A stretch of DNA of 64,000 bases from Clostridiales bacterium (GCA_017513085.1 JAFWDK010000010.1:224001-288000); one strand, 5' to 3'; counted from the stretch's first letter, positions 3,280-26,895 are shown. Notes: generated by a model not told the origin, from the letters alone. A program made the numbers and translations.

Positions 3280-3362
3280 TTTGAGATATTCATCGCAAAA
3301 CAGGAAGCATCGTTGAAATTGTGGTATACTTTTATGAAAGTCTAAATATGGAGGTTTTTGGA

Positions 3363-7825: not shown

Positions 7826-7837
7826 TATTGGTGACAG

Positions 7838-8470: not shown

Positions 8471-8499
8471 AAATTGCCGGAATTGTTCCGGCTTTTTTT
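8470..8499 (+). terminator. Intrinsic terminator
   Basis: gccggaa-ttg-ttccggc followed by T7. Confidence 0.7.
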
Positions 8500-8609
8500 G
8501 TCATTTGTGGCTCCTATTGACGAAGTTCCATGCTTTTGTCGTTATTTGTCGTTTGTACAATAAGTATGTCATCAGACTGCCTGTTATATTGAAGCAGGAG
8601 GTGATTTCT

Positions 8610-8882
8610 ATGAATACTGTTCAGACGGCAATTGTTTTTGTGGTTGTGTTTCTTGTTCTTTGTATGTTCATCGTAATGAGTCCGCTCATGTATAAAAGAA
8701 CTTTCTATCTGGCGGAGATCTCAGTATCTTCTCAAGATAAGAATAACGAGAAAAAGCGGATATTCGAAGTGGTTCCCAAAACAAACAAAGATAATTACTG
8801 GAATATCGAAAACAGTTGCCCGGAAAAGGCATACAGATTTGCTAAAGGGCTACATGATTCAGTAAACATCATAATTGGATAA
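8610..8882 (+). CDS. Small N-terminally anchored membrane protein, possibly pilin-like
   Basis: Strong AGGAGGTG RBS; hydrophobic N-terminal helix; first gene of the Tad-like trio. Confidence 0.6.
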   Translation: MNTVQTAIVFVVVFLVLCMFIVMSPLMYKRTFYLAEISVSSQDKNNEKKRIFEVVPKTNKDNYWNIENSCPEKAYRFAKGLHDSVNIIIG

Positions 8883-8892
8883 AGGAGAAAGT

Positions 8893-10287: not shown

Positions 10288-11296
10288 AAAAAGACGGTTG
10301 AGAATCGGTTCGTTTGTATTGGAGGCCAGTATTGCGACACCGATCGTGGTCGTTCTTTTGGCAGCCATGCTATCGTCAATGACTGCGATCAACTCGGAAT
10401 TATACGTCCAAAGAGCAACGGAAAATGTTGTACAGGAGATCAATCTGGCGATTCCGATTGCTTCACAAGGCTTTTCATGTATTGATGATATAGCTAAATT
10501 CTTTGGAGTAGGTGATCTGCTCGATGTTGATACCAAGGATATTGATACATTTTTAGGCGCTTTTGGAGCAGTGAGCGGAGCAACAGACGTTGATTTCGAA
10601 GATATAGTCGGTACTGTTGCGTTTGGCCGATTGGTAAGAGACAGGATCGTGAACGAGTACCGGAAAATATGTAAGAATAATTGGGTCGCTACAGATCTTT
10701 TAAAAACAATGTCTGTATATTTGGACTATGATAAAGAGAAAAAGTGTATCTTTGTCGATGTTTACTATGAGCTATCAGCAGGCAAGATCTCTTTGTTCCG
10801 AAAGTACTGCACAACGGTTTCCATGTATGCAGATCCGATCCAACGTCCGGAACAGGATCCGGGGAATGGCGAGCAGACTGATTCCATATGGGATCAGGAT
10901 AATTTTGGCAGGGGAATTGCGTTAAGAAAGAAATATGGTGGAAATCTACCGCACAACTATCCTGTTATAAGCGCTTTTAAGGATCATGAAGCGACTTCTG
11001 TCAAAAGCATCGATACAACCTCGCCGTACTATCAAAATCTTACAAAACTGACAGGCGTAGTAAAAGGATATATTGATGATCTGGCGGATTTTCAAGGCGC
11101 CAACTGGGGTGATACTTCTATTTCCGGAGATGATATCCACTCGAGAAAACTCATAATCGTCATTCCTGAGAACGGATCGGAAGAGTGTACTGCAGCAATC
11201 GAGCAATTACGCGCATATGCGGAAAGCCGTGGAGTGAAGCTTCAAATCGAATCTTATGGGGAATCCCACAAATATACTCAAGAACCCGAGCAGTAG
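10274..11296 (+). CDS. TadE-like minor pilin with C-terminal CdiA-CT EC869-like nuclease-fold domain
   Basis: Basic leader then G|SFVLEASIATPIV (TadE motif); C-terminal RG...GGNLP.NYPVI..F....ATSVKSIDT...Y...IDDLADF.G......I....I.SRKL.IVIP...YA..RGVKLQI. Confidence 0.75.
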   Translation: MRIIRKRRLRIGSFVLEASIATPIVVVLLAAMLSSMTAINSELYVQRATENVVQEINLAIPIASQGFSCIDDIAKFFGVGDLLDVDTKDIDTFLGAFGAVSGATDVDFEDIVGTVAFGRLVRDRIVNEYRKICKNNWVATDLLKTMSVYLDYDKEKKCIFVDVYYELSAGKISLFRKYCTTVSMYADPIQRPEQDPGNGEQTDSIWDQDNFGRGIALRKKYGGNLPHNYPVISAFKDHEATSVKSIDTTSPYYQNLTKLTGVVKGYIDDLADFQGANWGDTSISGDDIHSRKLIIVIPENGSEECTAAIEQLRAYAESRGVKLQIESYGESHKYTQEPEQ

Positions 11297-11330
11297 CATT
11301 ATATTATATATAAATATATACAAAAAAAAG

Positions 11331-11359
11331 TTGTCATTGAGCAAACCTTGCTGTATATT
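11331..11359 (+). promoter_or_regulatory. Sigma-A-like promoter for the small ORF-yerC-secA unit
   Basis: TTGTCA-17 bp-TATATT with an AT-rich upstream tract. Confidence 0.55.
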
Positions 11360-11406
11360 ATTAGTGCTGATAATTTGAGTAATTGTGTTTACTTGGAGGA
11401 GAAGAC

Positions 11407-11646
11407 TTGAAACAGGGAAGCGAGCAAGTACGTGAAGTAGGCAGTTCCCGGCAATCCGGCGGATTCAAGGATCGGGAAAGAGATCTTCCGATCGGAGATG
11501 TTTTGCGTAAACATTACCGGGAGCTTATGACCAAGCGTTTGTTGGTTTTAACTGTTGTCATTCTTCTAATCCTTTTGGTGGTCATTTTTACTGTTAATGG
11601 CTTTTTCGGCCGCATGTTTGATACACTGATGGGATTTGTGGATTGA
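11407..11646 (+). CDS. Small single-pass membrane protein
   Basis: GGAGG 7 nt before TTG; C-terminal hydrophobic helix. Confidence 0.6.
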   Translation: MKQGSEQVREVGSSRQSGGFKDRERDLPIGDVLRKHYRELMTKRLLVLTVVILLILLVVIFTVNGFFGRMFDTLMGFVD

Positions 11647-11653
11647 GGTTATT

Positions 11654-11983
11654 GTGAACGACAAGCTTAAAGACAAACATATGGATGATCTTTTTGACGC
11701 GATTCTTACATTGAAGACTCGTGAAGAGTGTTATTCTTTGTTTGAAGATCTTTGCACGATATCTGAGATCAAATCTTTGGCACAAAGGTTTCAAGTAGCG
11801 ATACTTCTTGCTAAAGGGCATACATACTCCGAGATATTCGATGAGACCGGTGTCAGCACAGCGACGATCAGTCGCGTAAAGCGTTGCCTGGATTATGGTG
11901 CCGACGGCTATAGAACCGTTCTTAGCCGTATGGAAATTGATCCTGTCAATGCTGATAAAGGGAAAATGAAAGGGAACGAGTAA
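11654..11983 (+). CDS. YerC/YecD family TrpR-like protein
   Basis: LFDAILTL...ECY..FEDLCT..E...LAQR...TYSEI...TG.STATISRV.RCL.YG.DGY. Confidence 0.9.
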   Translation: MNDKLKDKHMDDLFDAILTLKTREECYSLFEDLCTISEIKSLAQRFQVAILLAKGHTYSEIFDETGVSTATISRVKRCLDYGADGYRTVLSRMEIDPVNADKGKMKGNE

Positions 11984-11985: not shown

Positions 11986-14811
11986 ATGAGTATTATTACC
12001 AAAATCTTTGGTACGCACAGTGATCACGAGATCAAGCGCATTATGCCGATTGTTGAATCTATAGAGAAGCTTTCTGACCGCTTTTCCGATATGTCTGAGG
12101 CTGAACTTCGTGGTATGTCGGATGTTTTGAAGAAGAGACTTGCCAATGGTGAAACAACTGATGATATCCTTCCTGAAGCTTTCGCTACGATTCGTGAAGC
12201 AGCGTGGAGAGTCTTGGGAATGCGCCCTTACCGAGTACAATTAATTGGTGGTATTATCCTGCATCAGGGTCGTATTGCTGAAATGAAGACCGGTGAAGGT
12301 AAGACTTTGGTTGCTACTCTCCCGGTTTACTTAAATGCGCTGACAGGCAGAGGCGTTCACGTTGTAACTGTAAACGATTACCTGGCTCGACGCGATAGTG
12401 AGTGGATGGGTAAGGTTTACAGATATCTCGGTCTTTCTGTCGGCTTGATCGTTCATGATCTCGACAACACCGAGCGCCGTAAAGCTTATAATTCCGATAT
12501 CACCTACGGAACAAACAATGAATTCGGATTCGATTATCTCCGTGACAACATGGTCGACAAGAAAGAAAAGATGGTTCAGAGAGAATTGGCCTTTGCAATT
12601 GTCGACGAGGTTGATAGTATTCTCATCGATGAAGCTCGTACACCTCTTATTATTTCCGGTATGGGCGGTGAGTCTTCCGATATGTATACGAAAGCGGACC
12701 GCTTTGTTAAGACATTGAAGAAATTTGTCGTAGTTGAAACAGATGAAAAAGTTGATATCGACGATATCAGCGGTGATTGCGACTATGTTGTTGACGAAAA
12801 AGCCAAGACGGCCGTTCTTACTGCAAATGGTATCAGCAAAGCAGAGAAACATTTTAATGTAAAGAATCTTTCCGATCCGGAAAACTTTGACCTGCAGCAC
12901 TATATTAACAATGCTTTGAAGGCTAACGGTACGATGGAGCGTGACCAGAAGTATGTTGTTACCAACGGAGAAGTTATTATCGTTGATGACTTTACCGGTC
13001 GTCTTATGTATGGGCGTCGTTTCAGTGATGGACTCCACCAGGCGATTGAAGCCAAAGAGGGTGTAAAGGTCGAGCGTGAGTCTAAAACATTGGCCACGAT
13101 CACGTTCCAGAACTATTTCCGTATGTATGACAAACTTGCAGGTATGACCGGTACGGCCTACACAGAGGAAGCCGAATTCCGTCAGATCTATAGTTTGGAT
13201 GTTATTCAGATCCCGACAAACAGACCGATTGCACGTATTGATGAACATGATGCTGTTTATAAGAACCAGAGCGGTAAGTATGCAGCTGTTTTGAGACAGG
13301 TTAAGGAAGCTCATGAAAAGGGACAGCCTGTTCTTGTCGGTACTGTTGAAGTTAGCAAATCCGAGTTCTTGTCGAAGATCTTTACCCGTGCAGGTATCAA
13401 GCATGAAGTCCTGAATGCGAAGAACCACTTACGAGAGGCTGAAATCGTTGCACAGGCCGGACGTTATGGTGCGGTTACGATCGCTACGAATATGGCTGGT
13501 CGTGGTACGGATATTCTTCTCGGAGGTAACCCGGAGTTTATGGCTAAGCAGGAAATGCGCAAACTTGGTTATTCCGAGGAATTGATCGATGCATCCACTG
13601 CGTATAATGAGACTGATGATGAGCTGATCCTTGAAGCTCGTCAGCGTTTTACCACTTTGAATAAAGAGTTCAAAGAGAAGATCAAAGAAGAAACAGAAAA
13701 AGTTGTCGAAGCCGGCGGTTTGTTCATTATCGGTACAGAACGACATGAGTCACGTCGTATTGACAATCAGTTGCGTGGTCGTGCCGGTCGTCAGGGTGAC
13801 CCGGGACGTACGAAGTTCTTCCTTGCTCTGGATGATGACTTGATGCGTCTGTTTGGTGGTGAGCGTGCCAATGCTGCTTTTGAGGCACTGGGTGTTGATG
13901 AAACGGTTGAGATCCAGAATGGTCTTCTTTCCAGACAGATCGAGAGTGCGCAGAAAAAGGTTGAGGGTAACAACTTCAGCATTCGCCGTCACGTACTTGA
14001 GTATGACGATGTTATGAACGTTCAGCGTAATCTTATTTATGAGCAGAGACGCAAGGTGCTTGATGGTGATGATATTCACGATACGATCAAGAAAATGCTC
14101 TCTACTGTTGCGGAGAGAACTGTTAGCAACGTTGCCCTTGACGGAACGATCAACAGTGAGGAATGCGTGGGATTAAAGGCTACTATCCTCGATGTATTCG
14201 GAGATGTTGATGTTGTTAACGACCTTTCTAAAGCTGTGAACAATAAGGAATCTGTTGATGCTTCCGAGATTTCTGAAGCTTTGGTTGAGCAGGGTCTTGA
14301 AAAACTTGAGAGTCGTGATGAAGAGCTTACTCCGGAAGTCTTCCGCGAAGCAGAACGTCAGATCTTGTTATTTAATGTTGACCAGAAGTGGATGGATCAT
14401 ATTGATGCTATGGATCAGCTCCGTAATGCTATCGGAATGAGAAGTGTAGGACAGAAGGATCCGGTTGTTGAGTACAGACTCGAGGGTTCTGAGATGTTCG
14501 ATGAGATGAATATGCTCATTCAGAATGATACGGTTCGTCTGATCATGAAGGCCAATATTGAAGCTGGTCAGAAAATTGAGAGAAAGTCTTCTGTTAAGAA
14601 ACTCCAGGAGGGGCACGGAAATTCGCAGTTGGATGCTGTTGCTAAGCGTGCACAGTCAGGCGTGGATGCCAAGGCACATCAGCAGGCTGGAACAACTGAA
14701 AACCGCGAGCCCGCTAAGAGAGACTCTAAGAAGGTAGGACGTAATGATCCGTGTCCTTGTGGATCCGGAAAGAAGTATAAGAATTGCTGCGGAAAGGACG
14801 CGAATGACTGA
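11986..14811 (+). CDS. secA: Preprotein translocase ATPase SecA
   Basis: MKTGEGKT, DEVDSILIDEARTPLIISG, TNMAGRGTDI, RRIDNQLRGRAGRQGDPG and a C-terminal SEC-C motif. Confidence 0.99.
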   Translation: MSIITKIFGTHSDHEIKRIMPIVESIEKLSDRFSDMSEAELRGMSDVLKKRLANGETTDDILPEAFATIREAAWRVLGMRPYRVQLIGGIILHQGRIAEMKTGEGKTLVATLPVYLNALTGRGVHVVTVNDYLARRDSEWMGKVYRYLGLSVGLIVHDLDNTERRKAYNSDITYGTNNEFGFDYLRDNMVDKKEKMVQRELAFAIVDEVDSILIDEARTPLIISGMGGESSDMYTKADRFVKTLKKFVVVETDEKVDIDDISGDCDYVVDEKAKTAVLTANGISKAEKHFNVKNLSDPENFDLQHYINNALKANGTMERDQKYVVTNGEVIIVDDFTGRLMYGRRFSDGLHQAIEAKEGVKVERESKTLATITFQNYFRMYDKLAGMTGTAYTEEAEFRQIYSLDVIQIPTNRPIARIDEHDAVYKNQSGKYAAVLRQVKEAHEKGQPVLVGTVEVSKSEFLSKIFTRAGIKHEVLNAKNHLREAEIVAQAGRYGAVTIATNMAGRGTDILLGGNPEFMAKQEMRKLGYSEELIDASTAYNETDDELILEARQRFTTLNKEFKEKIKEETEKVVEAGGLFIIGTERHESRRIDNQLRGRAGRQGDPGRTKFFLALDDDLMRLFGGERANAAFEALGVDETVEIQNGLLSRQIESAQKKVEGNNFSIRRHVLEYDDVMNVQRNLIYEQRRKVLDGDDIHDTIKKMLSTVAERTVSNVALDGTINSEECVGLKATILDVFGDVDVVNDLSKAVNNKESVDASEISEALVEQGLEKLESRDEELTPEVFREAERQILLFNVDQKWMDHIDAMDQLRNAIGMRSVGQKDPVVEYRLEGSEMFDEMNMLIQNDTVRLIMKANIEAGQKIERKSSVKKLQEGHGNSQLDAVAKRAQSGVDAKAHQQAGTTENREPAKRDSKKVGRNDPCPCGSGKKYKNCCGKDAND

Positions 14812-15637
14812 TCAAGGCATTTTAGATAAAATCAAGGAAGCTGCGGATTATATCTCTGGCGTTTTGCCTGAGATACCGGATACATGCCTGGTTCTTGGAT
14901 CCGGATTGGGTTCTTTGACCGATCGTGTGAATATTCTTTCAACGATTTCTTATTCGCAGATCCCTCACTTTTTTGCAACCACTGTTCCCGGACATGAAGG
15001 CGTGCTTGTATATGGCGAGCTTTCCGGCAAGAAAACTTTGATCATGAAAGGCCGCTTTCATTTCTACGAAGGTCATAGTACACAGGATATTACTTTCTAT
15101 GTCCGTGTTATGGCTAAACTGGGCGTTAAGAATCTTATCCTGACCAATGCTGCCGGTGGAATCAACGAGAAGATGAAGCCAAGTGAGCTGATGGTTATTA
15201 CGGATCATATTTCTTTTTTGTGTGATTCTCCGCTTAGAGGCCCGCATCATGATGAATTCGGCGTTCGTTTCCCTGATCAGACAACTGTTTATGATAAACA
15301 GTTTATTTCGATACTTTCTGATTGCGCACGTGAATTGAATATTCCTTTACATCAGGGTGTGTATATGTATACGAGAGGCCCTCAGTATGAAACACCTGCA
15401 GAAATCCGTGTTTGCAAGGCGATTGGTGCCGATGCGGTCGGTATGTCTACGGTAGCTGAATCTATTTGCGCATCTCAAAGCGGATTGCGCGTTATGGCAG
15501 TTTCTTGTATCACCAATCTTGCTGCCGGTATATCTCCTACGCCTCTTAGTCACAAAGAAGTGATGGAAAATGCGTTAGCTGCTTCAGACAACAGCATTGC
15601 TTTGCTTGAAAAATTCTTTTCAAAATTGGAGGAATAA
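14804..15637 (+). CDS. punA: Purine nucleoside phosphorylase (trimeric family)
   Basis: VLGSGLG, GRFHFYEG, LTNAAGG, GPQYETPAE, DAVGMST and SCITN. Confidence 0.92.
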   Translation: MTDQGILDKIKEAADYISGVLPEIPDTCLVLGSGLGSLTDRVNILSTISYSQIPHFFATTVPGHEGVLVYGELSGKKTLIMKGRFHFYEGHSTQDITFYVRVMAKLGVKNLILTNAAGGINEKMKPSELMVITDHISFLCDSPLRGPHHDEFGVRFPDQTTVYDKQFISILSDCARELNIPLHQGVYMYTRGPQYETPAEIRVCKAIGADAVGMSTVAESICASQSGLRVMAVSCITNLAAGISPTPLSHKEVMENALAASDNSIALLEKFFSKLEE

Positions 15638-15638
15638 T

Positions 15639-16901
15639 ATGAGTGAACTGCCTCTTTATGAGATCAAGGATATTGCGTTAGCCCCAAGCGGACACCATAA
15701 GATCGATTGGGCATATAGAAATATGCCTGTCCTTCGTGCTATTGAAAAGGAACTTCAGGAAACAAAGCCTTTTGAGGGATTGAAGATTTCGGTTAGTGTG
15801 CATGTGGAAGCAAAGACGGCATGCCTTGCTTTGGTTCTTCGTGAAGGTGGAGCAGATGTAGCTTTGACTGGATGTAATCCGTTGTCAACTCAGGATGATG
15901 TTGCTGCGGCACTTGTTGAGCGTGGAATGAAAGTTTACTGTATCCATGGCGCAGATCCGGAAACATACAGAAAGCATCTTGCTATGACGCTTGCTTTTGG
16001 ACCGGATATTGTGATTGACGATGGTGGAGATCTTGCCATGTTGCTTCATTCTACCCACAGTCATCTGGTTCCTAAACTTCTTGGTGCATGTGAAGAGACT
16101 ACTACCGGTGTCCACAGACTTAAAATCCTTGAGGAAGAAGGCCGCTTGGCTTATCCGGTAATTGCTGTTAACGATGCTCGTTGTAAACATCTTTTTGATA
16201 ACCGGTTTGGTACCGGTCAATCTGTTTGGACTGCTATAATGGCGACGACAAATCTTGTAGTTGCCGGTAAACAGGTTGTTGTAGCCGGTTTCGGTATGTG
16301 CGGAAAGGGCGTTGCTCTTCGTGCCAAAGGAATGGGCGCCAGAGTTATCGTTACAGAGATCGATCCTGTTAAGGCGTGTGAAGCTATCATGGAAGGTTAT
16401 GAAGTGATGACCATGGATCAGGCTGCTCCTTTGGGCGATGTGTTTGTAACGGTTACAGGTTGCAAAGATGTAATTACTACAAAGCATTTTAAAAAGATGA
16501 AAGATGGCGCAATTTGCTGTAATGCCGGGCATTTTGATGTGGAAATCAACCTTGTGCAGTTGGCTTCTTTGGCTGTGAAAAAAGAAGTTCTTCGAAATAA
16601 TATCGAGGGATACGTGCTAGAGGATGGTCGTACGATTTGTATTCTTGCGGAAGGACGACTTGTTAACCTGGCTTCCGGTGATGGTCATCCTGTTGAGATC
16701 ATGGATATGAGTTTTGCTCTTCAAGCACAGAGCGCTCGGTATATTGCCGAGCATGGCGCTACTTTGGCTAAACATGTATATGATACGCCGGAAGCTATTG
16801 ATAATCGAGTTGGTGAATTCCTCTTAAAGGCTAAAGGGTGTTCAATTGATAAATTGACGCCAGAGCAGGATCATTATATTCATTCTTGGGATCTGGAGTA
16901 A
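15639..16901 (+). CDS. ahcY: Adenosylhomocysteinase (SAH/SIH hydrolase)
   Basis: HVEAKT, CNPLSTQDDVA, DDGGD, EETTTG, KHLFDNRFGTGQS, NAGHFD and GRLVNL..GDGHP. Confidence 0.95.
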   Translation: MSELPLYEIKDIALAPSGHHKIDWAYRNMPVLRAIEKELQETKPFEGLKISVSVHVEAKTACLALVLREGGADVALTGCNPLSTQDDVAAALVERGMKVYCIHGADPETYRKHLAMTLAFGPDIVIDDGGDLAMLLHSTHSHLVPKLLGACEETTTGVHRLKILEEEGRLAYPVIAVNDARCKHLFDNRFGTGQSVWTAIMATTNLVVAGKQVVVAGFGMCGKGVALRAKGMGARVIVTEIDPVKACEAIMEGYEVMTMDQAAPLGDVFVTVTGCKDVITTKHFKKMKDGAICCNAGHFDVEINLVQLASLAVKKEVLRNNIEGYVLEDGRTICILAEGRLVNLASGDGHPVEIMDMSFALQAQSARYIAEHGATLAKHVYDTPEAIDNRVGEFLLKAKGCSIDKLTPEQDHYIHSWDLE

Positions 16902-16904
16902 AAA

Positions 16905-18227
16905 ATGGGTAAAGCCGTTCTTTTTTCTGATTTTACAATTGTCACATCACACGATGATTATTCCGTAAGTGTTCTGGAACACGCTTATTGCGTGATTTTT
17001 AACGATCGGATACGATATGTTGGCTCTTCTTCAGATGATGCGGGTAAGATTGTTTCTGAAGTTTCCGGAAACGACTATGAAGTATATGATGGTAAGAATA
17101 AGATTCTTTGTCCGACATTTGCCAATGCGCATGCTCATATGTCTATGTCTATCTTCCGTAATATTGCTGATGATTATGCTTTGAATGATTGGCTTTTCGG
17201 AGAGATCATTCCTAGGGAAGATAAGATGATCGAAGGTGATTTCCGATATGGTCATCTGCTCTCTATTGCGGAAATGATCGAGAGTGGAACTGCTTGCGCT
17301 GCTAATATGTATGATGGCGCCTTAATAACAACTCCTGTCTCTTCGGAGGCGGGTTTCCGTGTGCAACAGACTATTATGGGTAAAAAGTGTGTAGACGGGA
17401 AGTGGTCAGCTAACGAGAAAGATGTTGATGAGTTCTATGCTGTATGCAAGAATCTGAATTCTGATCTGATCCAGGGAAGTCTTCTGGTTCATTCTATTTA
17501 TCTTTATCCGGAAGAGCTGTATCCGGCGCTTACAGAACTGGCGCAAAAGTATAAACTGCCAATCAGTGTTCATATTTCCGAGACTTTGGTTGAGAATGAG
17601 AACTGTATGAAGCAGTATGGTTGCTCTCCGGTGGAGAAACTGAATTCATTTAATATGCTTACTGATACTACCGTTGCGGCACACTGTGTTCATTTAAATG
17701 ATGCTGATCGTTCGATCCTTTCTGAGAAGGGCGTGTGGGTTGCGCATAATCCATCTAGTAATATGAAACTTGCGTCCGGATTTGCGGATACCATGTCGAT
17801 GGATAAGATGAGTGTAAGACTTTGCCTGGGTACTGACGGTGCGGCGAGTAATAACAATCAGGATATGTTTATGGAGATGCGACTGGCTGCTTTCATGGCT
17901 AAAGGTTCAACTTTGGATCCGACGATTCTGCCTGCTTCCAAAGTGTTCCATATGGCTACCCGTAATGGATATCTGGCTTGTGGTTTTTCTGACTGTGGTA
18001 TTATAGAAGAAGGCATGAAAGCGGATATTCAAATCATTGATTATGACTGTCCTCAGATGTGGCCTCTCGGAAACCCGGTTTCGGCACTTGTTTATTCCTG
18101 CGGACCAAAGTGTGTCGAGTCTGTCATGATCAACGGAGATTTCGTGTTATATAAGCATGAATTGACAAAGATCGATCTGGAGAGAGTTAAAGCAGAAACC
18201 AAGAAGACGATGGAACGTTTGAGATAA
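16905..18227 (+). CDS. mtaD: Amidohydrolase, MTA/SAH deaminase-like
   Basis: NAHAH, HSIY, HISET, AAHCV, HNPSSNMKLASG and LGTDGAASNN; adjacent to ahcY and punA. Confidence 0.8.
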   Translation: MGKAVLFSDFTIVTSHDDYSVSVLEHAYCVIFNDRIRYVGSSSDDAGKIVSEVSGNDYEVYDGKNKILCPTFANAHAHMSMSIFRNIADDYALNDWLFGEIIPREDKMIEGDFRYGHLLSIAEMIESGTACAANMYDGALITTPVSSEAGFRVQQTIMGKKCVDGKWSANEKDVDEFYAVCKNLNSDLIQGSLLVHSIYLYPEELYPALTELAQKYKLPISVHISETLVENENCMKQYGCSPVEKLNSFNMLTDTTVAAHCVHLNDADRSILSEKGVWVAHNPSSNMKLASGFADTMSMDKMSVRLCLGTDGAASNNNQDMFMEMRLAAFMAKGSTLDPTILPASKVFHMATRNGYLACGFSDCGIIEEGMKADIQIIDYDCPQMWPLGNPVSALVYSCGPKCVESVMINGDFVLYKHELTKIDLERVKAETKKTMERLR

Positions 18228-18460: not shown

Positions 18461-18625
18461 ATGTTAACAAGCGCATTTTGTTTATCCAAACTTGTCCGAA
18501 CAGGCGATGTTGTTGACGCACTTACGAAATATGGCCCGATTTGCTTATTTGGCATAGGTTTTTTGATTTTTCTGATATTAGCGATCCTCTCTTGGAAAGA
18601 GTATGTACATGGTAAAAGAAAATAA
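18461..18625 (+). CDS. Small membrane protein (54 aa), not in the ORF track
   Basis: Hand translation MLTSAFCLSKLVRTGDVVDALTKYGPICLFGIGFLIFLILAILSWKEYVHGKRK; AGGGGGG RBS; one TM with a basic tail; terminator follows. Confidence 0.6.
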   Translation: MLTSAFCLSKLVRTGDVVDALTKYGPICLFGIGFLIFLILAILSWKEYVHGKRK

Positions 18626-18652
18626 AAACTGCCTTTCGGCAGTTTTTATTTT
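18619..18652. terminator. Bidirectional terminator between convergent genes
   Basis: aaaataaaaactgcc-tttc-ggcagtttttatttt. Confidence 0.85.
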
Positions 18653-18663: not shown

Positions 18664-19869
18664 TCATTTTTCATACTCATATATACCCAGCGTGCTGATA
18701 AGCGTCTTGGATATTCCGTTATCCATGCTTTCTATTGATCCGTCATATGTGAATGAAGTAGTGTAGACGAAAGAATAATCAAAATCGGTTTTGAGAAGTT
18801 CGTCCAGAAAACTATCCAGAAATGCCGGTTCAGAAGAGATCTTCCTTGGGTTGCCTTCATATTCGCTCATCATTTTTTGAAGTATAGCCTGAATTGTCGA
18901 GTCAAAGTCTTTTGGTGCGTGAAAGCTTACAGATATGTCGACAGAACTTGTCGATACGGCTTTTTCGTTGACCTGAAATGCGGATTTTTCATAAACTTTG
19001 TCCATGTATGCATATACCTTGTTTAACTGGGAGTCTGTCAGATCTTCCATGTCAAATCCGATGTAATAGATGAAAGATTTTGCAAGCTGTTTACGATAGG
19101 AAAGAATGTAGTTCTGTGCATCTGCCTTTTCGTCGATTTCAAGAATAAGCGACGGGTCATTCTGAGCAACCGCATGGATCGTTATGTTGACATACTCGAT
19201 CGGGTCGAGAGTAAAAAAACAATCCAATGTTATACTTGAGACGACCCGCTCGTTTTCATCGTTTTGCTTCGCTTGAAGCGTGAACGTGCATTTTAGACCA
19301 TCTTTCGATTTGAAACTTTTTGTATAGTTACAATATGCTCCTGCGTCATCGACATTATCAAAGGCAAAACCATCATCTGTGTAGGCATACAGTTCTTTTT
19401 CGGTCGGAATTCGCGTTTCCCAGACAACGATACCTCCGGAAACCATTGAGTTTCCGGAGTATCTGTCCAGTACGATCCGTCCGACCATAGCATCTTCAAG
19501 TTTGACTTGCTCTTTTGAATTATTGAAAATGTCGGCGTAACAGATTTTGGTGATTGTCCCGACAACCTGATGTAGTTCGACTTTGTATTTATACCAAGTA
19601 TGGGGAAGTAGAGTTACTTCTGCGTCTTTCGGGTTGGCATATGACCATCCGTTATTCAAAAAGCTCTTCAGTTGAGTCGGAAACTCATACATTGCTCCTT
19701 GAAGATAAAACTGTCCCATGTTCCCGGCAGAAAGCTTAGAAGGCAACTGCGTACGGATTTCGTTCTGCCAGTCCGTGCTGTCTTTTTTCTTAACCAGACC
19801 ACAGCCTACTGATGAAACGATGATCAGTAGGGATAAAAGGAGAATGGTAATTGACGCTTTATGGCTCAT
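18664..19869 (-). CDS. Hypothetical lipoprotein
   Basis: Signal peptide with SSVG-C lipobox; 401 aa; no family recognised. Confidence 0.7.
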   Translation of the reverse strand: MSHKASITILLLSLLIIVSSVGCGLVKKKDSTDWQNEIRTQLPSKLSAGNMGQFYLQGAMYEFPTQLKSFLNNGWSYANPKDAEVTLLPHTWYKYKVELHQVVGTITKICYADIFNNSKEQVKLEDAMVGRIVLDRYSGNSMVSGGIVVWETRIPTEKELYAYTDDGFAFDNVDDAGAYCNYTKSFKSKDGLKCTFTLQAKQNDENERVVSSITLDCFFTLDPIEYVNITIHAVAQNDPSLILEIDEKADAQNYILSYRKQLAKSFIYYIGFDMEDLTDSQLNKVYAYMDKVYEKSAFQVNEKAVSTSSVDISVSFHAPKDFDSTIQAILQKMMSEYEGNPRKISSEPAFLDSFLDELLKTDFDYSFVYTTSFTYDGSIESMDNGISKTLISTLGIYEYEK

Positions 19870-19905: not shown

Positions 19906-21030
19906 TTAAATATATACGTTTCCCGACGCACTTTCCGGATTGAAGATAGAAGAGGCCTGCTCGTCAGTAAGTGTAATTCCGAACAGATCTTTGTAATAAT
20001 CTTTAGTTTCTTTGGTGATGTCGATATCAGCAAAAAGATCCGGATATGCGCATTTGGCCAGGAAGAGAAGAGTGATAGGTGTATCTGCACCCGGCGTGTA
20101 GCTTCTGTACATACCTAAAGGCATCTTAAAGACCTGCTTGTCCTTAATTGCTTTCACTTCGCTCCAGTCATAGTTTCCGATCGTATTGTCGTAGAGATCC
20201 TGAGGGTATGCCTGGTTAAAGTTGGTAATAAATATCAGATCCGGGTTCCATGTGTAGATCTGTTCAATGTTTACCGCAACCGAGTTGTCTGTCGTTAATT
20301 CTTCGCCTACGTTTACTGCACCGATTGCTTCCGCCCAGAATTCACCGAAGAAAAGCTTTCCGGATGTAGTAATACTGGTGTCGCTGATCTGGAAAAGGAA
20401 GAAAACGCGTCGTTTGTCTTCCGGTTTTAATGAAGAAACACGTTCTTGTACAAGTTTGTAGATTTCATTGGAACGTTTGGCGACTTTGTCAGCCTTTTCG
20501 TTCTCTGCAAAGATCTCACCTAACAGTGCAAACCAGTTATTCAGTGTTTCAATCGTATTGTACTGCCACTTGTTTACGGAAACTCCGATTGCCGCGAATC
20601 CGCGTGATCTTAAAAGTTCGCCTAATTCCTTGTTGGAGCCGCTGTAGAAGACGACATCCGGTTCGAGTTTGGTAAGTTCTTCGATGTTTACATTAGAACC
20701 GTCCATGAACGATGTGGAGGCTTTCAGGATATCCGGATAAAGCTGGCCGAGAAGACCATTCTTGGCTGCGATCATGCTGGCTTCGTTCATTCCAACTATC
20801 TTTTCTGCGGAATCAAAGAAAACGGTCAGTACAGAAGGAAGAGGGAGAATGTCACACACGACAATGCGGTCGATCTTGTTTTTTACTTCGACCTGTACGC
20901 CGTTGTGATCCGTAACGATATGCGTCCCGTTTTCATCTTTCTTTTCCGTTTTTTTGCAAGCCACGCTACTGAAACATACAAGTGCTGTCAGCAAGGCAAG
21001 GATCAAGGAAATACTGCGTTTGAAATTCAT
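19906..21030 (-). CDS. ABC transporter substrate-binding lipoprotein (helical-backbone, BtuF/FecB-like)
   Basis: SVA-C lipobox, VTDHNG..V.....RIV, NIEEL.KLEPDVV, V.IEQI..WNPD.IF and W..VKA.K..QV. Confidence 0.88.
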   Translation of the reverse strand: MNFKRSISLILALLTALVCFSSVACKKTEKKDENGTHIVTDHNGVQVEVKNKIDRIVVCDILPLPSVLTVFFDSAEKIVGMNEASMIAAKNGLLGQLYPDILKASTSFMDGSNVNIEELTKLEPDVVFYSGSNKELGELLRSRGFAAIGVSVNKWQYNTIETLNNWFALLGEIFAENEKADKVAKRSNEIYKLVQERVSSLKPEDKRRVFFLFQISDTSITTSGKLFFGEFWAEAIGAVNVGEELTTDNSVAVNIEQIYTWNPDLIFITNFNQAYPQDLYDNTIGNYDWSEVKAIKDKQVFKMPLGMYRSYTPGADTPITLLFLAKCAYPDLFADIDITKETKDYYKDLFGITLTDEQASSIFNPESASGNVYI

Positions 21031-21050
21031 GTGTTTTTTACCTTCTTTTC

Positions 21051-22190
21051 TTAAAGTTTTTCGGCAATATATGAAATATCACCGATCAAGTTAGGAATAT
21101 CTTTTCGAAAGATCCTTCCGGAGTAGGCTTCATGCGGAAGAGCGATGAATGCTGCCTTTTCCGTCAGAACATTTCGGTAAATAGGGTCGGAAATGACCGT
21201 TCCGGCGCCGCGAAGAGCATCGTCAATGTCTTCTTCGTAAGGCGTGTAACGATCACAAGAACGTAACTTCGGTCCATCGTTGGTGGGACAAAGCACGGAA
21301 AAATGTCTATTGGTTTCCAGGGCAAGTGCTTTTGCCAAGGAAAGTGAAGAAATCTCTTCTCCGATGATGAAGCAGCCGTCTTCCGTTTCAGGATCATTGA
21401 AATCGATTGCCGCTTCTTTTCCGTCAGCGAGAAGAGATAGAGTTTCCAGTATCTTGCCGGTTAACTGAGAGCCATAAGGAACTGCCTCGAGATACGGGGT
21501 CCCGAAAGTCTCTTTCAGGTACTCCGCCGTGGCGCGGCCTGTCGAAGAAACAACCAGGTTTACACTGGCCGAACCGATATTCTCTATGGATTCCCAGGTC
21601 GTATTCATCGCAAGAGTAGCGTTGACTGTCCAGCCGTTTTTCTCGAAAAGCTCCCGAAGCGACTCGCATTGACCGTTGGTGGAGAAATCAAGCGGAGTAA
21701 GCCCGATTATGTTGAGGACGCGATTCCCGCTTGGGGTTATTTCTTTTATTGAAAAGCGCTCAACGATTGCACGTAGTGCCATGGAAGCTCCGGAAACGTA
21801 GGTTTTCATTCCCGTGGTGGAGAAGCCGAATGCCGGGATCCCGGTTTCGTTTTCAATCTGGAATGCGACACTTTCCGCGTCAAAACCTGTCATGGCCGGA
21901 ATCGGTGTTCCCGCAATCGCTATGAAGCGAGGGTGAAAACGCTTAGCTTCTGTGACGATATCCTCGATCAGTTTGTTATCGTCGCCCATGATGGCTTCGA
22001 GTTCTGAGATAGCCGATACGAAAAGCATGCTGTCCATATCGAACCATCTTGGCTCGTCGTGTGTGGTGTAAGTGGAGTTGCAGCCGGATGCATCATGAAT
22101 GATGACCATTCCGCCGAGTTCAAATAGCATTGATGCGACGCCAAAAGCATCTGCACTATATGTAGATAAAATTCTGCTTGTTTGTTTCAT
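21051..22190 (-). CDS. Nitrogenase component 1-like oxidoreductase subunit
   Basis: IIHDASGCN, SAISELEAIMGDD.KL, IAGTPIPAMTGFD and NIIG pattern of the Oxidored_nitro fold. Confidence 0.85.
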   Translation of the reverse strand: MKQTSRILSTYSADAFGVASMLFELGGMVIIHDASGCNSTYTTHDEPRWFDMDSMLFVSAISELEAIMGDDNKLIEDIVTEAKRFHPRFIAIAGTPIPAMTGFDAESVAFQIENETGIPAFGFSTTGMKTYVSGASMALRAIVERFSIKEITPSGNRVLNIIGLTPLDFSTNGQCESLRELFEKNGWTVNATLAMNTTWESIENIGSASVNLVVSSTGRATAEYLKETFGTPYLEAVPYGSQLTGKILETLSLLADGKEAAIDFNDPETEDGCFIIGEEISSLSLAKALALETNRHFSVLCPTNDGPKLRSCDRYTPYEEDIDDALRGAGTVISDPIYRNVLTEKAAFIALPHEAYSGRIFRKDIPNLIGDISYIAEKL

Positions 22191-23518
22191 ATACAGCTTT
22201 CGCACCCCCATGCTTTTTTCTGGATCAATGTACGGATGTCTTTTTCGTTTTCAACAGCATCCAGCATCAGGCGGCAAAGCTCAGTGATTGCCTGATAACC
22301 GTACAGACCGCCATTTTCGACAATGTTGACAAAGTGCGGGGCGGTATTGAAATGAGCAGCTTTTTGACCGATACAAAGATAATCAGAAGCCTTCCGGTCG
22401 GAGGCGAAGCGCATTTGCGCATCAAGAGTCGGCCAGATCTCCAGATCCGGTTCTTGCTGACAGAGGTAATCGAAATCGCTTTTTTCTTCGCCGGTAAAAG
22501 AATCCGCATAGACTCTTTTTACATTGAATCCATGAGAAAGAAGGAGACGAGCCAATCCGAGCGGGCGGCTGAAAGCGGCAAAATCAATAGCTATCGGTGT
22601 CTGACCGATCGTTTCTTTCACTTTGGATAATGACTCTTCGCAAAGGGACTCTTCCTTATCAAAGTCGGGAAGCCGGATCGGAACATGAAAGGCCAGTTCC
22701 CGGACATTCTTTCTGATTTCCTCATAACTGAATGTGAAGGGGAGATACAGGAGCTTTCCGCCGAGACGGGCCTGCAGATCTTCTCCGCCGGCCTTGGCAG
22801 ACGGATAATCGGCGATATAGTATTCCGCCGCCGCCATTTCCTGGTACTCCTCATAGGTTTTGCATTCGGTAAGCTCATATATCCGGATTCCTGCTTCGGA
22901 AAGAGCTTTATAGAGGGTACTGTCTTTGGCTGTTGAGAAATCGTTCCCTATAAAAGCAACTGTACCTTTCTGAATCGGCCTTGGTTTGAGAAGACTGTAA
23001 AAACGGCTTCTCATGATCTGGTCCGGTGTCCGTCCACTCTTTCTCATGATCGGATTCATGTAACAGTCGGTGAAATCGATATCCGGATGTTTTTTCCTCA
23101 GCTCACGGTACACAAGCTCCAGATCACAGCCGCAAAAATGATGTACGCAACTTGTATACACCAGAACACACGGCGGTTTTTGCGGGAGTTGATCGATAAT
23201 ATGTGATACGCCATCGACGATCAATTCCTCCATGTTCCCGTCGACAAGGTTTTGTTCCTCGACGGCAACCGTGGAAAAGCGTTTCTCTGCCCGCATTTCA
23301 TAAGCAGTTAGGACAACTCCTCGAAGGCAGCTTGCGGCACATACGAAGATTTCATGCGCTTCCGGAATCAGCATCCCTTGGTGCGCTATGTTCCATGTAC
23401 CACGGGCAGGGGAGGAGAATTCCAGTCCTGCGTGAAAAGGACTCGGGAAATTACAATCCCTGATCTTGATCGGTTCTATATCTACCTCATGTCCATTTAC
23501 TTTTCTTAACATGATCAT
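22187..23518 (-). CDS. Nitrogenase component 1-like oxidoreductase subunit
   Basis: [21 protein letters not shown]...E.NLVDG..E and VYTSC.HHF.GCD; lies next to the nifH-like gene. Confidence 0.85.
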
Positions 23519-24270
23519 TCCTCACAGCACTGTAATAAATCCGACGCCAGTTTTCTGTATTCCGAAGCCATATCGCTATCCGGAAATGCTTCGATCACAG
23601 TCTTTCCAAGGTCTTCTGCTTCGGTTACAAGATTGGAACGGGAAAGAGTACCTACGATCTTAGAATGAATATCGTCACAAAGTTCCTGAACCTTAGCTTC
23701 TTCGTCTTTGACGTTTCTTCTGTTCAAGATCACTCCACCGAGAGAGGCATAGCCGCGTCCCTGAAAATTATCCAGTGCCATAGCGATATTGGCAGCGGCA
23801 TGAATCGCCATGTTTTCTCCGGAAGTGATGACAAAGACTTTGTCCGCATAGCCGCCTCGCATCGGCATGGAGAAACCACCGCAGACTACGTCTCCAAGAA
23901 CGTCATAAAGGACAACATCGGGTTTAAATACCTCGTATGCCCCCTTTTCTTTTAACTTGTCCAGTGCGGCGATGATTCCTCGGCCGGCACAGCCAAGCCC
24001 CGGAGTCGGACCACCTGCTTCGACGCAGATCACGCCCTTATAGCCGGTTTTGACCATTTCCTCCAACGTAAGTTCTTTACCACGCTCACGAACAAGTTCC
24101 AGAACCGTTTTCACTTTCTTTTCGCCATGAAGCGAAAGTGTGGAATCTGCTTTTGGATCACAGCCGATCTGCATGACGCGCAAGCCGCGGTCAGCCAATG
24201 CTGCGGAGATATTTGAAACGGTCGTGGATTTTCCGATTCCGCCTTTGCCGTAAATCGCGATTTTGATCAT
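23515..24270 (-). CDS. NifH/BchL-family Fe protein (nitrogenase-like reductase)
   Basis: [31 protein letters not shown] and [11 protein letters not shown]. Confidence 0.95.
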
Positions 24271-25334
24271 TATAATTCCTCCTTTGCGTAGGTAACTTTA
24301 CAACTAACGTTCGGTATCAGTGAAAGCTGGTGCGCAAGCATACGGATCCTCTCGGCACTGCCGTCCAGATTGACACTGATGAGATACAGATCTCTCTTTC
24401 TATGGGGCATCCCCATACGACCGAATAAAATATCATTGAAATCGTGAAGAATAGAATTGATCCGTTCTGATTCCTCATATTTACTGCAAATGATAGACAG
24501 TGTCGCCAGGACGTCACAATCTTCTTTGCCGGTATTTTTCTGATCTTCGTGATCGGTCAGAGCAACAGGAATGACATTGGCGATCATATTGTTATCTGTC
24601 TCAAACTGGCCGATATAAGCTTTTACGCCAAAAGCACTCTCAATATTCTCTTCCGTGATGATCTTCGGGGTCGGTCCGAAGAGTACTTTTCCGTGATCGA
24701 TCAGGATCGATTTGGCGGAGCGTCGCAGAGCGTGTTCCGGATAATGCGTGTTGAACAAGATGCCGATACCTTCTGAACTGAGTTTCGTGAGAGTATCCAG
24801 TACGATCATCTGGTTCTTAAAATCCAGATTGGATTCCGGTTCGTCAAGTACGATGATCCCTGCGTGCGAAACAAGTGAACGCGCGATCCTTGTCATCTGG
24901 AGCTCACCACCACTGATCTCGTTGCATTTTCTGTCTCGAAGATGAAGAATATGAAGCCGGTCCAGAGTCTGTTCGGCAAGCTCGATGTCTTTTGCTTTCG
25001 GCGTAGAGAACATGCCGATCTGGTTAGTCATGCCCAGCAAAACAGATTGCAGGACTGTATAACTGCCACCTCGATGGTTATTCTGCGGGACATAGGCAAG
25101 CTTGGACCAAAGCCTGGATGGTTCAAAATCAGAAATGTTTTCGCCGTCCAGAGTACTCATGCCATGCGTCCACTTTAAAAGTCCCATGGAGGCGCGAAGC
25201 AACGTGGTTTTTCCGGCACCGTTCGGCCCGAGGATGCTGACCATCTCGCCACTTTCGACAGAGAAATTCACGTTCTCATATAAACTTTTTCCTTTCTTAT
25301 AGCCGAAAGACGCGTCCTTTATTTCAAATTTCAT
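24270..25334 (-). CDS. ABC transporter ATPase (FepC-like) with C-terminal TM1266-like regulatory domain
   Basis: [22 protein letters not shown] and NTH; the last ~85 aa (INSILH...GRMGMP.....LIS) match the standalone regulator at 26337-26603. Confidence 0.9.
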
Positions 25335-26350
25335 AAAGACCAGCCTCCTTTCTTTCTCATCAGGAAAATAAAGAAGGGAGCGCCGATGATGGCGGTCAGT
25401 ATTGAGATCGGAAGTTCAGCAGCGGTCATGGAACGTGCAAGGGTATCTACAATGATCAGAAAAGTACCACCGAATGAAATGCATGCAGGTATCAGATGCC
25501 GGTGGTCATTGCCGAATACCATGCGGCACATATGCGGAACGATCAGTCCGACCCAGCCGACCTGGCCACACATGGAGATTGACGAAGCCGTAGCAATGGT
25601 CGCGCATAAAATAGCAATCATGCGGAGCCGTGGCATATTCACACCGGAAGAACAAGACTCCTCTTCGGACAACAAAAGAAGATTCAATCTCCATCTCAAA
25701 AGAAAAAGCACTGTCAGGCTTAGTGCAATCGGAATCACACCGATCAGCAGGGACGAATAGGTGGCGCTCTGAAGACTGCCCATAAGCCAGTACGTGATAG
25801 AAGGAAGCTGCTGTTCCTGATCCGCTGTGAATTTTACAAGAGAGACTAAAGCGGAGAACAAAGATCCCATGATAATACCGGAAAGAACGATCGTATTCAT
25901 GGCTTGATCTTTTCCTTTGGCGGCAAGGATCGTCAAAAATACGGCAAGACAACCGAATCCAAAAGATACCAGTTGCATCGGGATAAGGGAGAAGCCAAGA
26001 AGAATCGACAACACGGCACCGAAACTGCTTCCGCCTGCAACACCGAGCGTATCAGGTGTTGCCAAAGGATTCTGAAACAGGCTCTGAAAAAGCAGCCCGG
26101 CGCAGGAAAGCGCGCTTCCGACAACGAAAGCTAATAAAATGCGAGGAAGGCGAACGTTCCAGATCGTGATGTATGAAAGTTTGCTGACCTCAAATCCGTC
26201 GCTGAAACGTGACAGGACAGCACGAAAAACATCCGGGACAGAAACTATATACCGTCCTACGCAAAGCGAGAAAAGCAGAGCAAGTACCGGAAGTGCGATG
26301 AGAAGAAGAATATATCCGATTTTCCAGGAATCGTTTTTAGTTGCCATCAT
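25331..26350 (-). CDS. FecCD/BtuC-family ABC permease
   Basis: IWNVRLPRI, FQNPLATPD.LGV..G, GWVGLIVPH and ELPISILTAIIGAPFF. Confidence 0.92.
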   Translation of the reverse strand: MMATKNDSWKIGYILLLIALPVLALLFSLCVGRYIVSVPDVFRAVLSRFSDGFEVSKLSYITIWNVRLPRILLAFVVGSALSCAGLLFQSLFQNPLATPDTLGVAGGSSFGAVLSILLGFSLIPMQLVSFGFGCLAVFLTILAAKGKDQAMNTIVLSGIIMGSLFSALVSLVKFTADQEQQLPSITYWLMGSLQSATYSSLLIGVIPIALSLTVLFLLRWRLNLLLLSEEESCSSGVNMPRLRMIAILCATIATASSISMCGQVGWVGLIVPHMCRMVFGNDHRHLIPACISFGGTFLIIVDTLARSMTAAELPISILTAIIGAPFFIFLMRKKGGWSL

Positions 26351-26603
26351 GGTTGGTTACCACGTTAGAATAAGCTGTTTTGCTGGCGATGCCATCTAAA
26401 CGGCCGATCCGTCCGGACAGTGTATTGATATCGTCCTGCGGAGCGTCGATAGCGATGCTTATGATGCTGATCCCTTTTTCACGATAAGGAATGCCCATTC
26501 TGCCGATGATGTATTTTCCGTATTCGTGCAGGAGAGAATTCAGTTTCTCTACCGATTCGTTTTTTTCAACGATGATGCTGATCACAGCGACTCTGGTTTC
26601 CAT
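26337..26603 (-). CDS. TM1266-family 'iron-only hydrogenase system regulator'-like protein
   Basis: METRVAVISIIVE...SVEKLN.LLHEY...IIGRMGIPY...ISIISIA.DA...IN.LSG.IG.L.G...K. Confidence 0.88.
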   Translation of the reverse strand: METRVAVISIIVEKNESVEKLNSLLHEYGKYIIGRMGIPYREKGISIISIAIDAPQDDINTLSGRIGRLDGIASKTAYSNVVTNHDGN

Positions 26604-26620: not shown

Positions 26621-26727
26621 AAAAAAAACATGTCCTTAAAAGACATGGCAACACAAAAATAGCTTAAGCAAGCATATGGTTGTCAGATCTTTCACTCAGT
26701 AATACTTCATGTCAGGCGACATATCTC
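26621..26727 (-). promoter_or_regulatory. Attenuator-like 5' leader with intrinsic terminator
   Basis: On the minus strand, catgtc-ttttaag-gacatg plus T8 ends 17 nt before the first ATG; a short ORF ending Cys-Cys-His-Val-Phe overlaps the hairpin. Confidence 0.6.
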
Positions 26728-26771: not shown

Positions 26772-26800
26772 TTGACATATTTACAATAAATCGGTATATT
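26772..26800 (+). promoter_or_regulatory. Sigma-A promoter of tRNA-Thr
   Basis: TTGACA-17 bp-TATATT. Confidence 0.75.
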
Positions 26801-26820: not shown

Positions 26821-26895
26821 GCCAATGTGGCTCAGGGGTAGAGCAATTCACTCGTAATGAATAGGCCGTGGGTTCGATTCCCACCATTGGCTCCA
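26821..26895 (+). tRNA. tRNA-Thr(CGT)
   Basis: Acceptor GCCAATG/CATTGGC, anticodon arm ATTCA-CTCGTAA-TGAAT, GGTTCGATTCC, encoded CCA. Confidence 0.96.

Follow-up and report, generated by a model that had tools for sequence, protein, structure and literature searches.

What does a nitrogenase-like reductase do when its genes share an operon with those of an ATP-binding cassette (ABC) importer? This question is raised by seven translationally coupled genes on the minus strand (26603-19906) of a 64,000-nucleotide stretch of DNA from a Clostridiales bacterium (GCA_017513085.1 JAFWDK010000010.1:224001-288000), the whole of which was analysed and is referred to here as the window. The genes were identified by an open reading frame (ORF) listing, profile searches and direct reading of the sequence, and all seven genes of an earlier, purely sequence-based reading of this DNA (the original prediction) were found where it had placed them. 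On the basis of gene context and co-occurrence, we see about an even chance that these genes form the importer-type version of a system that builds the [2Fe] subcluster of the [FeFe]-hydrogenase H-cluster without HydG. In order of transcription the genes are:

26337..26603, minus strand: TM1266-like small protein of 88 amino acids (aa) (TIGR03959, 113.8 bits against a cut-off of 60.8; PDB 2nzc at 4.9e-12)
25331..26350, minus strand: FecCD-type permease of a type II ABC importer (PF01032, 290 bits)
24270..25334, minus strand: ABC ATPase with a fused C-terminal TM1266-like domain, residues 277-346 (PF00005, 98.5 bits; PF21699, 57.4 bits)
23515..24270, minus strand: NifH-like ATP-dependent Fe protein, nflH type A (PF00142, 293 bits)
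22187..23518, minus strand: D-like component-1 subunit, type A, 443 aa (PF00148, 61.5 bits)
21051..22190, minus strand: K-like component-1 subunit, type A, 379 aa (PF00148, 128.7 bits)
19906..21030, minus strand: Peripla_BP_2 substrate-binding lipoprotein of the importer (PF01497, 67 bits; lipobox Cys)

The D-like subunit had 2071 relatives at E<=0.001 in a large protein collection, mostly unnamed, with one called "nitrogenase component 1" from a Faecousia metagenome-assembled genome (MAG). A species-genome collection offered 256 places encoding a D-like relative, of which 80 were kept as related loci; these came from gut and rumen MAGs of Lachnospiraceae, Oscillospiraceae, Mogibacterium, Anaerovoracaceae and unclassified Clostridia, and 11 loci from other families were added to give 91. 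The seven genes were colinear in 56 of the 80 related loci, as judged by tblastn with the window proteins, and most of the others were cut by contig ends. Given these colinear loci the arrangement is far from chance, and the importer and nitrogenase-like genes belong together as one module, as had been proposed. The stretch or part of it was also encountered in animal-gut metagenomes (20 rows from 14 studies).

When all ORFs of the 80 loci were clustered, the additional genes of the cassette proved to be those of [FeFe]-hydrogenase maturation. In 34 of the 80 loci the ATPase gene and nflH are separated by a hydE gene (351 aa; TIGR03956, 533 bits, cut-off 255), and in 23 the next gene after that of the binding protein is hydF (400 aa; TIGR03918, 570 bits, cut-off 326). 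Over the full set of 91 loci hydE was present in 40 and hydF in 32, in several gene orders, with others in other families. The TM1266 family is itself tied by NCBI to the iron-only hydrogenase system, and the only two TM1266 domains of the window's genome are both encoded in the operon.

In the textbook account, [FeFe]-hydrogenases depend on three dedicated maturases, HydG, HydE and HydF. The window's genome, which is 99.4% complete, encodes HydE and HydF and has two Fe_hyd_lg_C matches; the only match of the HydG model in this genome was HydE itself, at 78 bits, and the genome thus encodes neither HydG nor a ThiH-like enzyme. Occurrence was followed in 400 genomes sampled evenly from the class, with HydG and HydE counted over 398 of them. 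The D-like protein was found at E<=1e-20 in 16 genomes, 12 of which held orthologs (38-100% identity) and four distant paralogs. All 12 ortholog carriers, spread over eight families, contained HydE and HydA (hydrogenase domain) and none contained HydG (0/12), the background for the sample being HydG above the cut-off in 242 of 398 genomes (61%) and HydE in 259 of 398. Comparing the lists by hand for these 259 HydE-positive genomes gave 12 with the ortholog and no HydG, none with both, 236 with HydG and no ortholog, and 11 with neither, which puts the HydE-positive, HydG-negative genomes at 23. Within the window's own family, four genomes were HydG-positive without the cassette, five (the window's genome included) had the cassette without HydG, and three lacked both HydE and HydG. 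Of the 79 distinct genomes from which the 80 related loci derive, 75 had HydE and five had HydG; the class sample and this set may overlap, and the counts are therefore not to be summed. Since the cassette travels with H-cluster genes and occurs almost only in genomes devoid of HydG, it probably stands in for HydG.

The same distribution bears on an accessory role, in which the cassette would make or repair another part of the H-cluster (the bridging ligand, sulfur, or iron delivered to HydF) or reactivate damaged cofactor, while an unrecognised gene covered the loss of HydG. The linkage to hyd genes speaks for this explanation too, and the 11 HydE-positive, HydG-negative genomes without a cassette suggest that another HydG substitute may exist. 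It gives no reason, however, for the mutual exclusion with HydG, which holds even within single families, where genomes carry either HydG or the cassette, and we consider such a role quite unlikely.

A second architecture, found in six genomes of three families (L107, L108 and L112-L115), has no importer and instead carries the genes for HypF, HypC, HypD and HypE between a second nitrogenase-like set (type B) and a type A D/K pair. In L115 a single strand encodes, without gaps, a NuoF-like protein, hydA, nflHDK of type B, hypF, hypC, hypD, hypE, a TM1266-like protein, nflDK of type A, hydF and hydE. HypFCDE derive cyanide from carbamoyl phosphate and build the Fe(CN)2CO unit. A [NiFe] large subunit was not found in five of the six genomes and the sixth had only a 69-position partial match, so that HypFCDE in the five would serve an [FeFe] enzyme. 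The partial match (G021:C25:21066-21272; NiFeSe_Hases positions 1-69 of 508, 54 bits) lies in a 364-aa frame and may be of the NuoD/Ech type. HypD was found neither in the window's genome nor in five of five other importer-type genomes, and each of those five gave a single D-like match, which means that they hold no type B set. As hypFCDE and the type B set take the importer's place in the Hyp architecture, the importer stands where the cyanide machinery, the iron-carbonyl-cyanide scaffold and a second reductase stand elsewhere. The importer and nitrogenase-like genes that the original prediction had joined were borne out as a conserved unit, while the context that decides its reading, namely the linkage to hydE and hydF, the replacement of the importer by hypFCDE and the near-constant absence of HydG, had been missed.

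Because the importer occupies the place of hypFCDE and the second nitrogenase-like set, it may deliver what those genes make, and this raises a salvage explanation. The importer would take up a ready-made organometallic precursor released by HydG-containing neighbours, be it what HydG itself makes or a comparable carbonyl-cyanide complex of iron and an amino acid, and the nitrogenase-like enzyme would only reduce or re-load it before HydE acts. The likeness of the binding protein to CeuE, whose ligand is a Ni-(His) metal-amino-acid chelate, is in line with this, as is the life of the hosts in dense gut and rumen communities, HydG being present in 61% of the sampled Clostridia. Nevertheless, no free compound of this kind is known to occur naturally and it is doubtful that one would be stable outside cells, and import of the HydG product itself would make the nitrogenase-like step seem unnecessary. 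Salvage in this form is, in our view, an unlikely explanation; if it were true, these bacteria would depend on their community for part of the hydrogenase cofactor.

In the passages searched, a 2026 review of nitrogenase-like systems names uncharacterised clades as the main challenge of the field, lists groups IV-D, IV-E and VI as uncharacterised, and does not tie these groups to hydrogenase. Family placement was made through the cut-offs of curated models and the ranks of PDB profiles. The operon belongs to the nitrogenase superfamily, as a NifH-family Fe protein and PF00148 subunits are encoded together, all above their cut-offs (293, 61.5 and 128.7 bits). The NifD/K, VnfD/K and AnfD/K equivalog models, however, gave best scores of only 22-56 bits against cut-offs of 427-874, and the NifE and NifN models also scored far under theirs; this agrees with the view of the original prediction that the operon does not fix N2, and its statement that nifB, nifE and nifN are missing from the window holds as well. 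The Fe protein fell below the cut-offs for nifH (327 against 394) and CfbC (316 against 402), and its PDB scores were 238 bits for NifH, 238 bits for the Fe protein of methylthio-alkane reductase (MAR) and 149 bits for BchL. The DPOR/COR models were not reached (BchL 197 against 345; ChlN 23 against 324; BchB 60 against 490), nor was CfbD (21 against 268), and the cassette conserves two different subunits where CfbCD has one homodimeric subunit. MAR and isethionate reductase are likewise not indicated, the MAR chains appearing at 6e-4 with the D-like profile and 1.5e-12 with the K-like profile, behind NifE and NifD, and neither NifB-like nor sulfur-metabolism genes are conserved around the cassette in the related loci. 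The operon is thus not a nitrogenase, DPOR, CfbCD or MAR.

Closer relatives were sought by profile and fold. The best solved relative of the D-like subunit in a phmmer search came at E=0.014, and its 27-sequence profile reached NifE at 1e-6, VnfD at 4e-5, MAR chains at 6e-4 and ChlN at 0.05; the K-like profile reached NifEN at 1.5e-21, clostridial (Cp) NifD at 3e-21, ChlB at 1.7e-15 and MAR at 1.5e-12. The AlphaFold (AF2) model of the D-like subunit (predicted local distance difference test, pLDDT, 81.8) resembled VnfK/D, NifEN, NifDK, MAR and ChlN about equally (TM-score 0.56-0.65, 12-17% identity). NifEN with NifH, the best sequence and fold relatives of both subunits, offers the closest parallel, in that an ATP-dependent Fe protein and a D/K-type scaffold mature the metallocofactor of another enzyme; the cassette differs in its 12-17% identity to NifEN in fold alignments, in having no adjoining NifB, and in that its target would be the H-cluster rather than FeMo-co.

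The P-loop and both cluster cysteines of the NifH-like protein can be read in the sequence, its motifs being intact as had been claimed. In the D-like subunit Cys60, Cys64, Cys124, His46, His55 and His126 are invariant, together with many acidic and basic residues (alignment A1, 27 sequences), while the FCGC cysteines and a C-terminal Cys pair, though common, are not kept by every family member. In the K-like subunit Cys37 is the only invariant cysteine, and it falls within residues 33-49, a block with 13 invariant positions, His44-Asp45-Glu46 among them (alignment A2, 29 sequences). The six cysteines of a P-cluster, three per subunit, are reduced to three in the D-like and one in the K-like subunit. 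All of the motifs picked out in the original prediction (CAASC, TSC..FCGC, ADAFG, SGC and GTP) are present, and the Pro of GTP in the K-like subunit does align with a conserved Cys of alpha-type subunits; the Asp of ADAFG, however, does not occupy the first Cys position, but belongs to an N-terminal motif that precedes the conserved SGC cysteine. The D/K pair would hold one interface [4Fe-4S] cluster with 3+1 ligation, three Cys coming from D and one from K, and its pocket would be polar, a better fit for a small metal species than for a pigment. DPOR (BchL/ChlL with BchNB/ChlNB) is similarly a two-component system with a single asymmetric interface [4Fe-4S] cluster and three plus one ligands (section 2.4 of the review), but the fourth ligand here would be Cys rather than Asp, and there is no pigment context.

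The window's genome has two further nitrogenase-like loci. One (L013, G000:C23:86000-103000; 747-9757, minus strand) encodes a paralogous type B nflHDK whose H, D and K proteins are 57%, 28% and 31% identical to the window set. This type B set carries its own Peripla_BP_2/FecCD/ABC importer, an FbpA-like SBP_bac_6 protein, a CobW-like GTPase and a second ABC ATPase, and a gene for a Crp-family regulator lies divergently upstream. The other (L014, G000:C5:17000-34000; ORFs 1672-11928) holds cysK, a NifB-like gene and a NifH that exceeds the nifH cut-off, along with a second CysK/M-like gene and two D/K pairs; a LanM-like fragment follows. Its NifB-like gene, the only one of the loci examined, scored 255 bits against a cut-off of 344, and both D/K pairs fell far under the Nif cut-offs; with these scores and a sulfur-type (Mar-like) signature, L014 was ruled out as a canonical nifHDKEN cluster. 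The original prediction had named clustering with bona fide NifDK, with nifENB elsewhere in the genome, as a ground for its rejection; no bona fide nitrogenase came to light there, the third nitrogenase-like cluster being this sulfur-type locus.

L014 is also instructive for a further explanation, according to which the cassette would cleave C-S bonds of organosulfur compounds anaerobically for sulfur assimilation, as methylthio-alkane or isethionate reductase does. Precedents exist in group IV, and genes of the S-adenosylmethionine (SAM) cycle stand just downstream in the window: at 14744-18227 on the plus strand, convergent with the operon, are genes for a PNP_UDP_1 nucleosidase/phosphorylase, S-adenosylhomocysteine hydrolase and an amidohydrolase. 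These neighbours are not kept beside the cassette elsewhere, however, and no NifB-like, cysteine synthase or methionine synthase gene accompanies it, while exactly that signature marks the separate cluster of the same genome; moreover, the D-like profile reaches the MAR chains at 6e-4 only, and the Cys set is reduced to 3+1. An organosulfur role is highly improbable.

What the importer carries was approached through its binding protein. With a FecCD permease, an ABC ATPase and a cluster-A Peripla_BP_2 protein encoded in one operon, the importer is of type II (FecCD/BtuCD class); relatives of the ATPase are of similar length (median 366.5 aa). The model of the binding protein had a pLDDT of 89.2, and its closest solved relative is 4ovk from Veillonella parvula, an unliganded structure (3.6e-62). 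Its profile reached MolA, the molybdate binder of HI1470/71, at 8.6e-32, Helicobacter pylori CeuE, which was solved with Ni-His, at about 1e-18, and BtuF and IsdE at about 1e-6; the TM-score was 0.82 with MolA and 0.85 with CeuE, at 23-24% identity. The MolBC-A (HI1470/71/72) and H. pylori CeuE Ni-His systems are thus the type II importers with the closest functionally annotated binding proteins, from which the window's system differs by this low identity and by the TM1266 domain of its ATPase.

These ranks weigh upon the import of a tetrapyrrole or corrinoid followed by ring reduction, as in DPOR, COR and CfbCD. Sections of the review describe the characterised relatives with a simple [4Fe-4S] cluster as reducing tetrapyrroles, and the importer family includes BtuCDF and heme systems. 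Against this, the binding-protein profile places BtuF and IsdE at about 1e-6 and MolA at 8.6e-32, the ChlN, ChlB and CfbD models score far under their cut-offs, no tetrapyrrole genes are conserved around the 91 loci, and the invariant pocket residues are polar or charged, leaving the explanation very improbable. The original prediction had included a tetrapyrrole or a sulfur compound among its possible substrates; with no such genes conserved in the 91 related loci and a binding protein nearest to binders of small solutes, neither was retained, and the tetrapyrrole, heme, corrinoid and organosulfur readings were all rejected on binding-protein ranks, model scores and unconserved neighbours.

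Another explanation is general acquisition of iron or another metal. Here a ferric or other metal chelate would be imported and the nitrogenase-like reductase would free its metal by low-potential reduction, the hyd genes adjoining only as maturation needs iron. The FecCD and Peripla_BP_2 families are in keeping with this, the solved relatives of the binding protein include the putative iron binders TM0189, YiuA and an E. eligens protein, the paralogous C23 cluster adds its FbpA-like SBP_bac_6 protein and CobW-like GTPase, and metal transport coupled to cofactor assembly was proposed by Dos Santos et al. 2012 (BMC Genomics 13:162). Yet metal acquisition leaves unexplained both the absence of HydG from 12 of 12 and 74 of 79 cassette genomes and the presence of hypFCDE in the importer's place in six genomes, and an ATP-driven two-component reductase would be a costly means of releasing iron. 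We therefore regard it as distinctly unlikely.

For the HydG substitute that we favour, a route can be envisaged. The MolA/CeuE-like lipoprotein and the FecCD/ABC importer would bring in a small metal-containing or anionic solute, and the TM1266 domain fused to the ATPase and the free TM1266-like protein would probably sense this same ligand. The NifH-like protein would spend ATP to push low-potential electrons into a D/K heterotetramer with one interface [4Fe-4S] cluster and a polar pocket rich in His, Asp and Glu, where the iron unit bearing CO and CN, normally supplied by HydG, may arise through reductive conversion of the solute or through its loading onto iron. HydE and HydF, encoded elsewhere in the window's genome, would then finish the cofactor and insert it into HydA. 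HydG and the cassette would thus be functional analogues, each supplying an iron-carbonyl-cyanide unit for HydE and HydF, with mutually exclusive distributions; they share no homology, HydG being a tyrosine-cleaving radical-SAM enzyme and the cassette an ATP-driven two-component reductase with an importer.

Somewhat short of an even chance, in our judgement, is the wider proposal that many gut and rumen Clostridia build the H-cluster without HydG, and that nitrogenase-like ATP-driven enzymes make or install CO and CN on iron, either de novo with HypFCDE and a second nitrogenase-like set or, as in the window, from an imported small solute, which could be a pseudohalide (thiocyanate, cyanate) or an iron-amino-acid organometallic complex from neighbours. 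HypE carries a protein-bound thiocyanate, and Rasche and Seefeldt in 1997 reportedly found that nitrogenase reduces thiocyanate and cyanate to cyanide- and CO-level products. From these two precedents one may speculate that reductive S-CN cleavage could be a step common to both architectures. In favour of the HydG substitute, nitrogenases are also described as reducing CO2 to CO (PMC13474568).

Several points weigh against a HydG substitute. Five of the 79 cassette genomes do carry HydG, one of these genes lying on a contig of about 1.6 kb, and the 79 locus-derived genomes come without a completeness estimate, though HydE was found in 95% of them. The HydG counts used a threshold of E<=1e-80, which a very divergent HydG outside the window's genome would escape, and the co-occurrence counts ignore kinship, related genomes not being independent. 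The 11 class-sample genomes that are HydE-positive and HydG-negative without a cassette (G063, G074, G310, G328, G062, G081, G120, G139, G165, G269 and G323), four of them at least 98% complete, indicate that HydG can be missing without the cassette; they may use another HydG-free way or reflect assembly gaps. Five of the 80 loci (L025, L061, L075, L078 and L091) show the TM1266-like gene and H-D-K, with no importer matches in the flanks examined, and in the window's genome hydE and hydF lie on other contigs. Finally, no recognisable cyanide source was found in the importer-type architecture, and as the D/K subunits have no radical-SAM or HydG-like features, their chemistry would have to differ entirely from that of HydG.

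The clade and its neighbours have been known since 2012. In the passages considered, Dos Santos et al. 2012 described Firmicutes "NifHEN-like" clades with reduced Cys sets and ABC transporter neighbours, reported two closely linked copies with "hydrogenase maturation proteins" in the human-gut Firmicutes Coprococcus catus and Dorea longicatena, and guessed at a role in metallocluster assembly. The reduced cysteines, the ABC or hydrogenase-maturation neighbours and the paired copies, as described there, all recur here; the cysteine counts differ, with two plus one for part of those clades and three invariant in the D-like and one in the K-like subunit here, and the same passages give neither a function nor an analysis of HydG. 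Group VI NFL (Elusimicrobia type), whose NifH is about 40% identical to NifH and which is sister to group V, has a radical-SAM-rich neighbourhood, from which that of the cassette differs. The complementarity with HydG and the Hyp architecture were not found in the literature searched, which held no report linking nitrogenase-like proteins to HydG loss or to hypFCDE; supplements lay outside that search, among them additional file 4 of Dos Santos et al. 2012, whose gene maps may affect the question of priority.

With regard to the gene calls, neighbouring genes of the operon overlap through ATGA or TAATG or are otherwise set 20-36 nt apart, much as the overlapping or abutting starts and stops of the original prediction had implied. 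For the TM1266-like gene, the GTG start at 26654 given by the ORF listing was set aside in favour of the ATG at 26603, which fits the family. The K-like gene most likely starts at 22190, in ATGA overlap with the D stop, rather than at 22211, and this start fits the length of about 379 aa expected earlier. Outside these genes, four features frame the operon:

26689..26715, minus strand: conserved leader motif upstream of the TM1266-like gene (pattern search)
26621..26647, minus strand: terminator-like hairpin with T8, a candidate attenuator about 20 nt before the first start codon (terminator scan)
18664..19869, minus strand: 401-aa lipoprotein with signal peptide and Cys, the eighth and apparently last gene before the terminator
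18620..18642, minus strand: intrinsic-terminator-like hairpin with a 5-bp GC-rich stem, GAAA loop and T-run (direct sequence reading; not listed by the consensus scan)

A relaxed form of the leader pattern matched this site and no other in the whole 3.06-Mb genome, and a strict form gave 30 matches in the 2.70 Mb of the 91 related loci, all 30 on the operon strand and 18 of them in leaders of the small gene. A hairpin followed by a T-run is visible in many related leaders; the region as a whole has seven terminator-like sites against 8.7 in shuffles, showing no enrichment, so that single hairpins are to be judged by position and conservation alone. No Rfam family matched in the operon leader. 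The first gene had been called a regulator; its place in the TM1266 family was confirmed, but regulator is an annotation only: the protein has no DNA-binding domain and, instead of acting as a classical regulator, may bind RNA or a ligand. Five short metatranscriptome contigs (182-322 nt; n=1) fall on five operon genes, which, as DNA carry-over is possible, is at most a weak hint of transcription; uncovered parts carry no information. Directly upstream of the leader, on the opposite strand, lies a tRNA-Thr(CGU) (26821-26895, plus strand), with a near-consensus promoter-like site at 26772-26800, and a tRNA 3' end adjoins the leader in several close relatives too. The 401-aa lipoprotein had no Pfam or NCBIfam match and recurs in one of the 80 related loci (37% identity by tblastn), placing it outside the conserved cassette. 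Upstream of the cassette in loci of the Mogibacterium/Anaerovoracaceae type (L053, L066 and similar), an extra set encoding a CobW-like GTPase, a Pyr_redox_2 flavoprotein, an ATC_hydrolase-family protein and a transporter of the major facilitator superfamily was seen in 13-15 loci, whose leaders are devoid of the conserved motif.

If a large share of the hydrogen producers of gut and rumen indeed replace HydG in this manner, the accepted minimal set for [FeFe]-hydrogenase maturation would not be universal, and genome-based predictions of hydrogen metabolism that require hydG would be biased. One uncharacterised nitrogenase-like clade would gain a testable function, and nitrogenase-type chemistry a new biological use, in the form of a new ATP-driven route to metal-bound CO and CN that could be studied and applied in the engineering of hydrogenase expression. 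The Hyp-containing architecture, in turn, would provide a handle on the anaerobic origin of the CO ligand.

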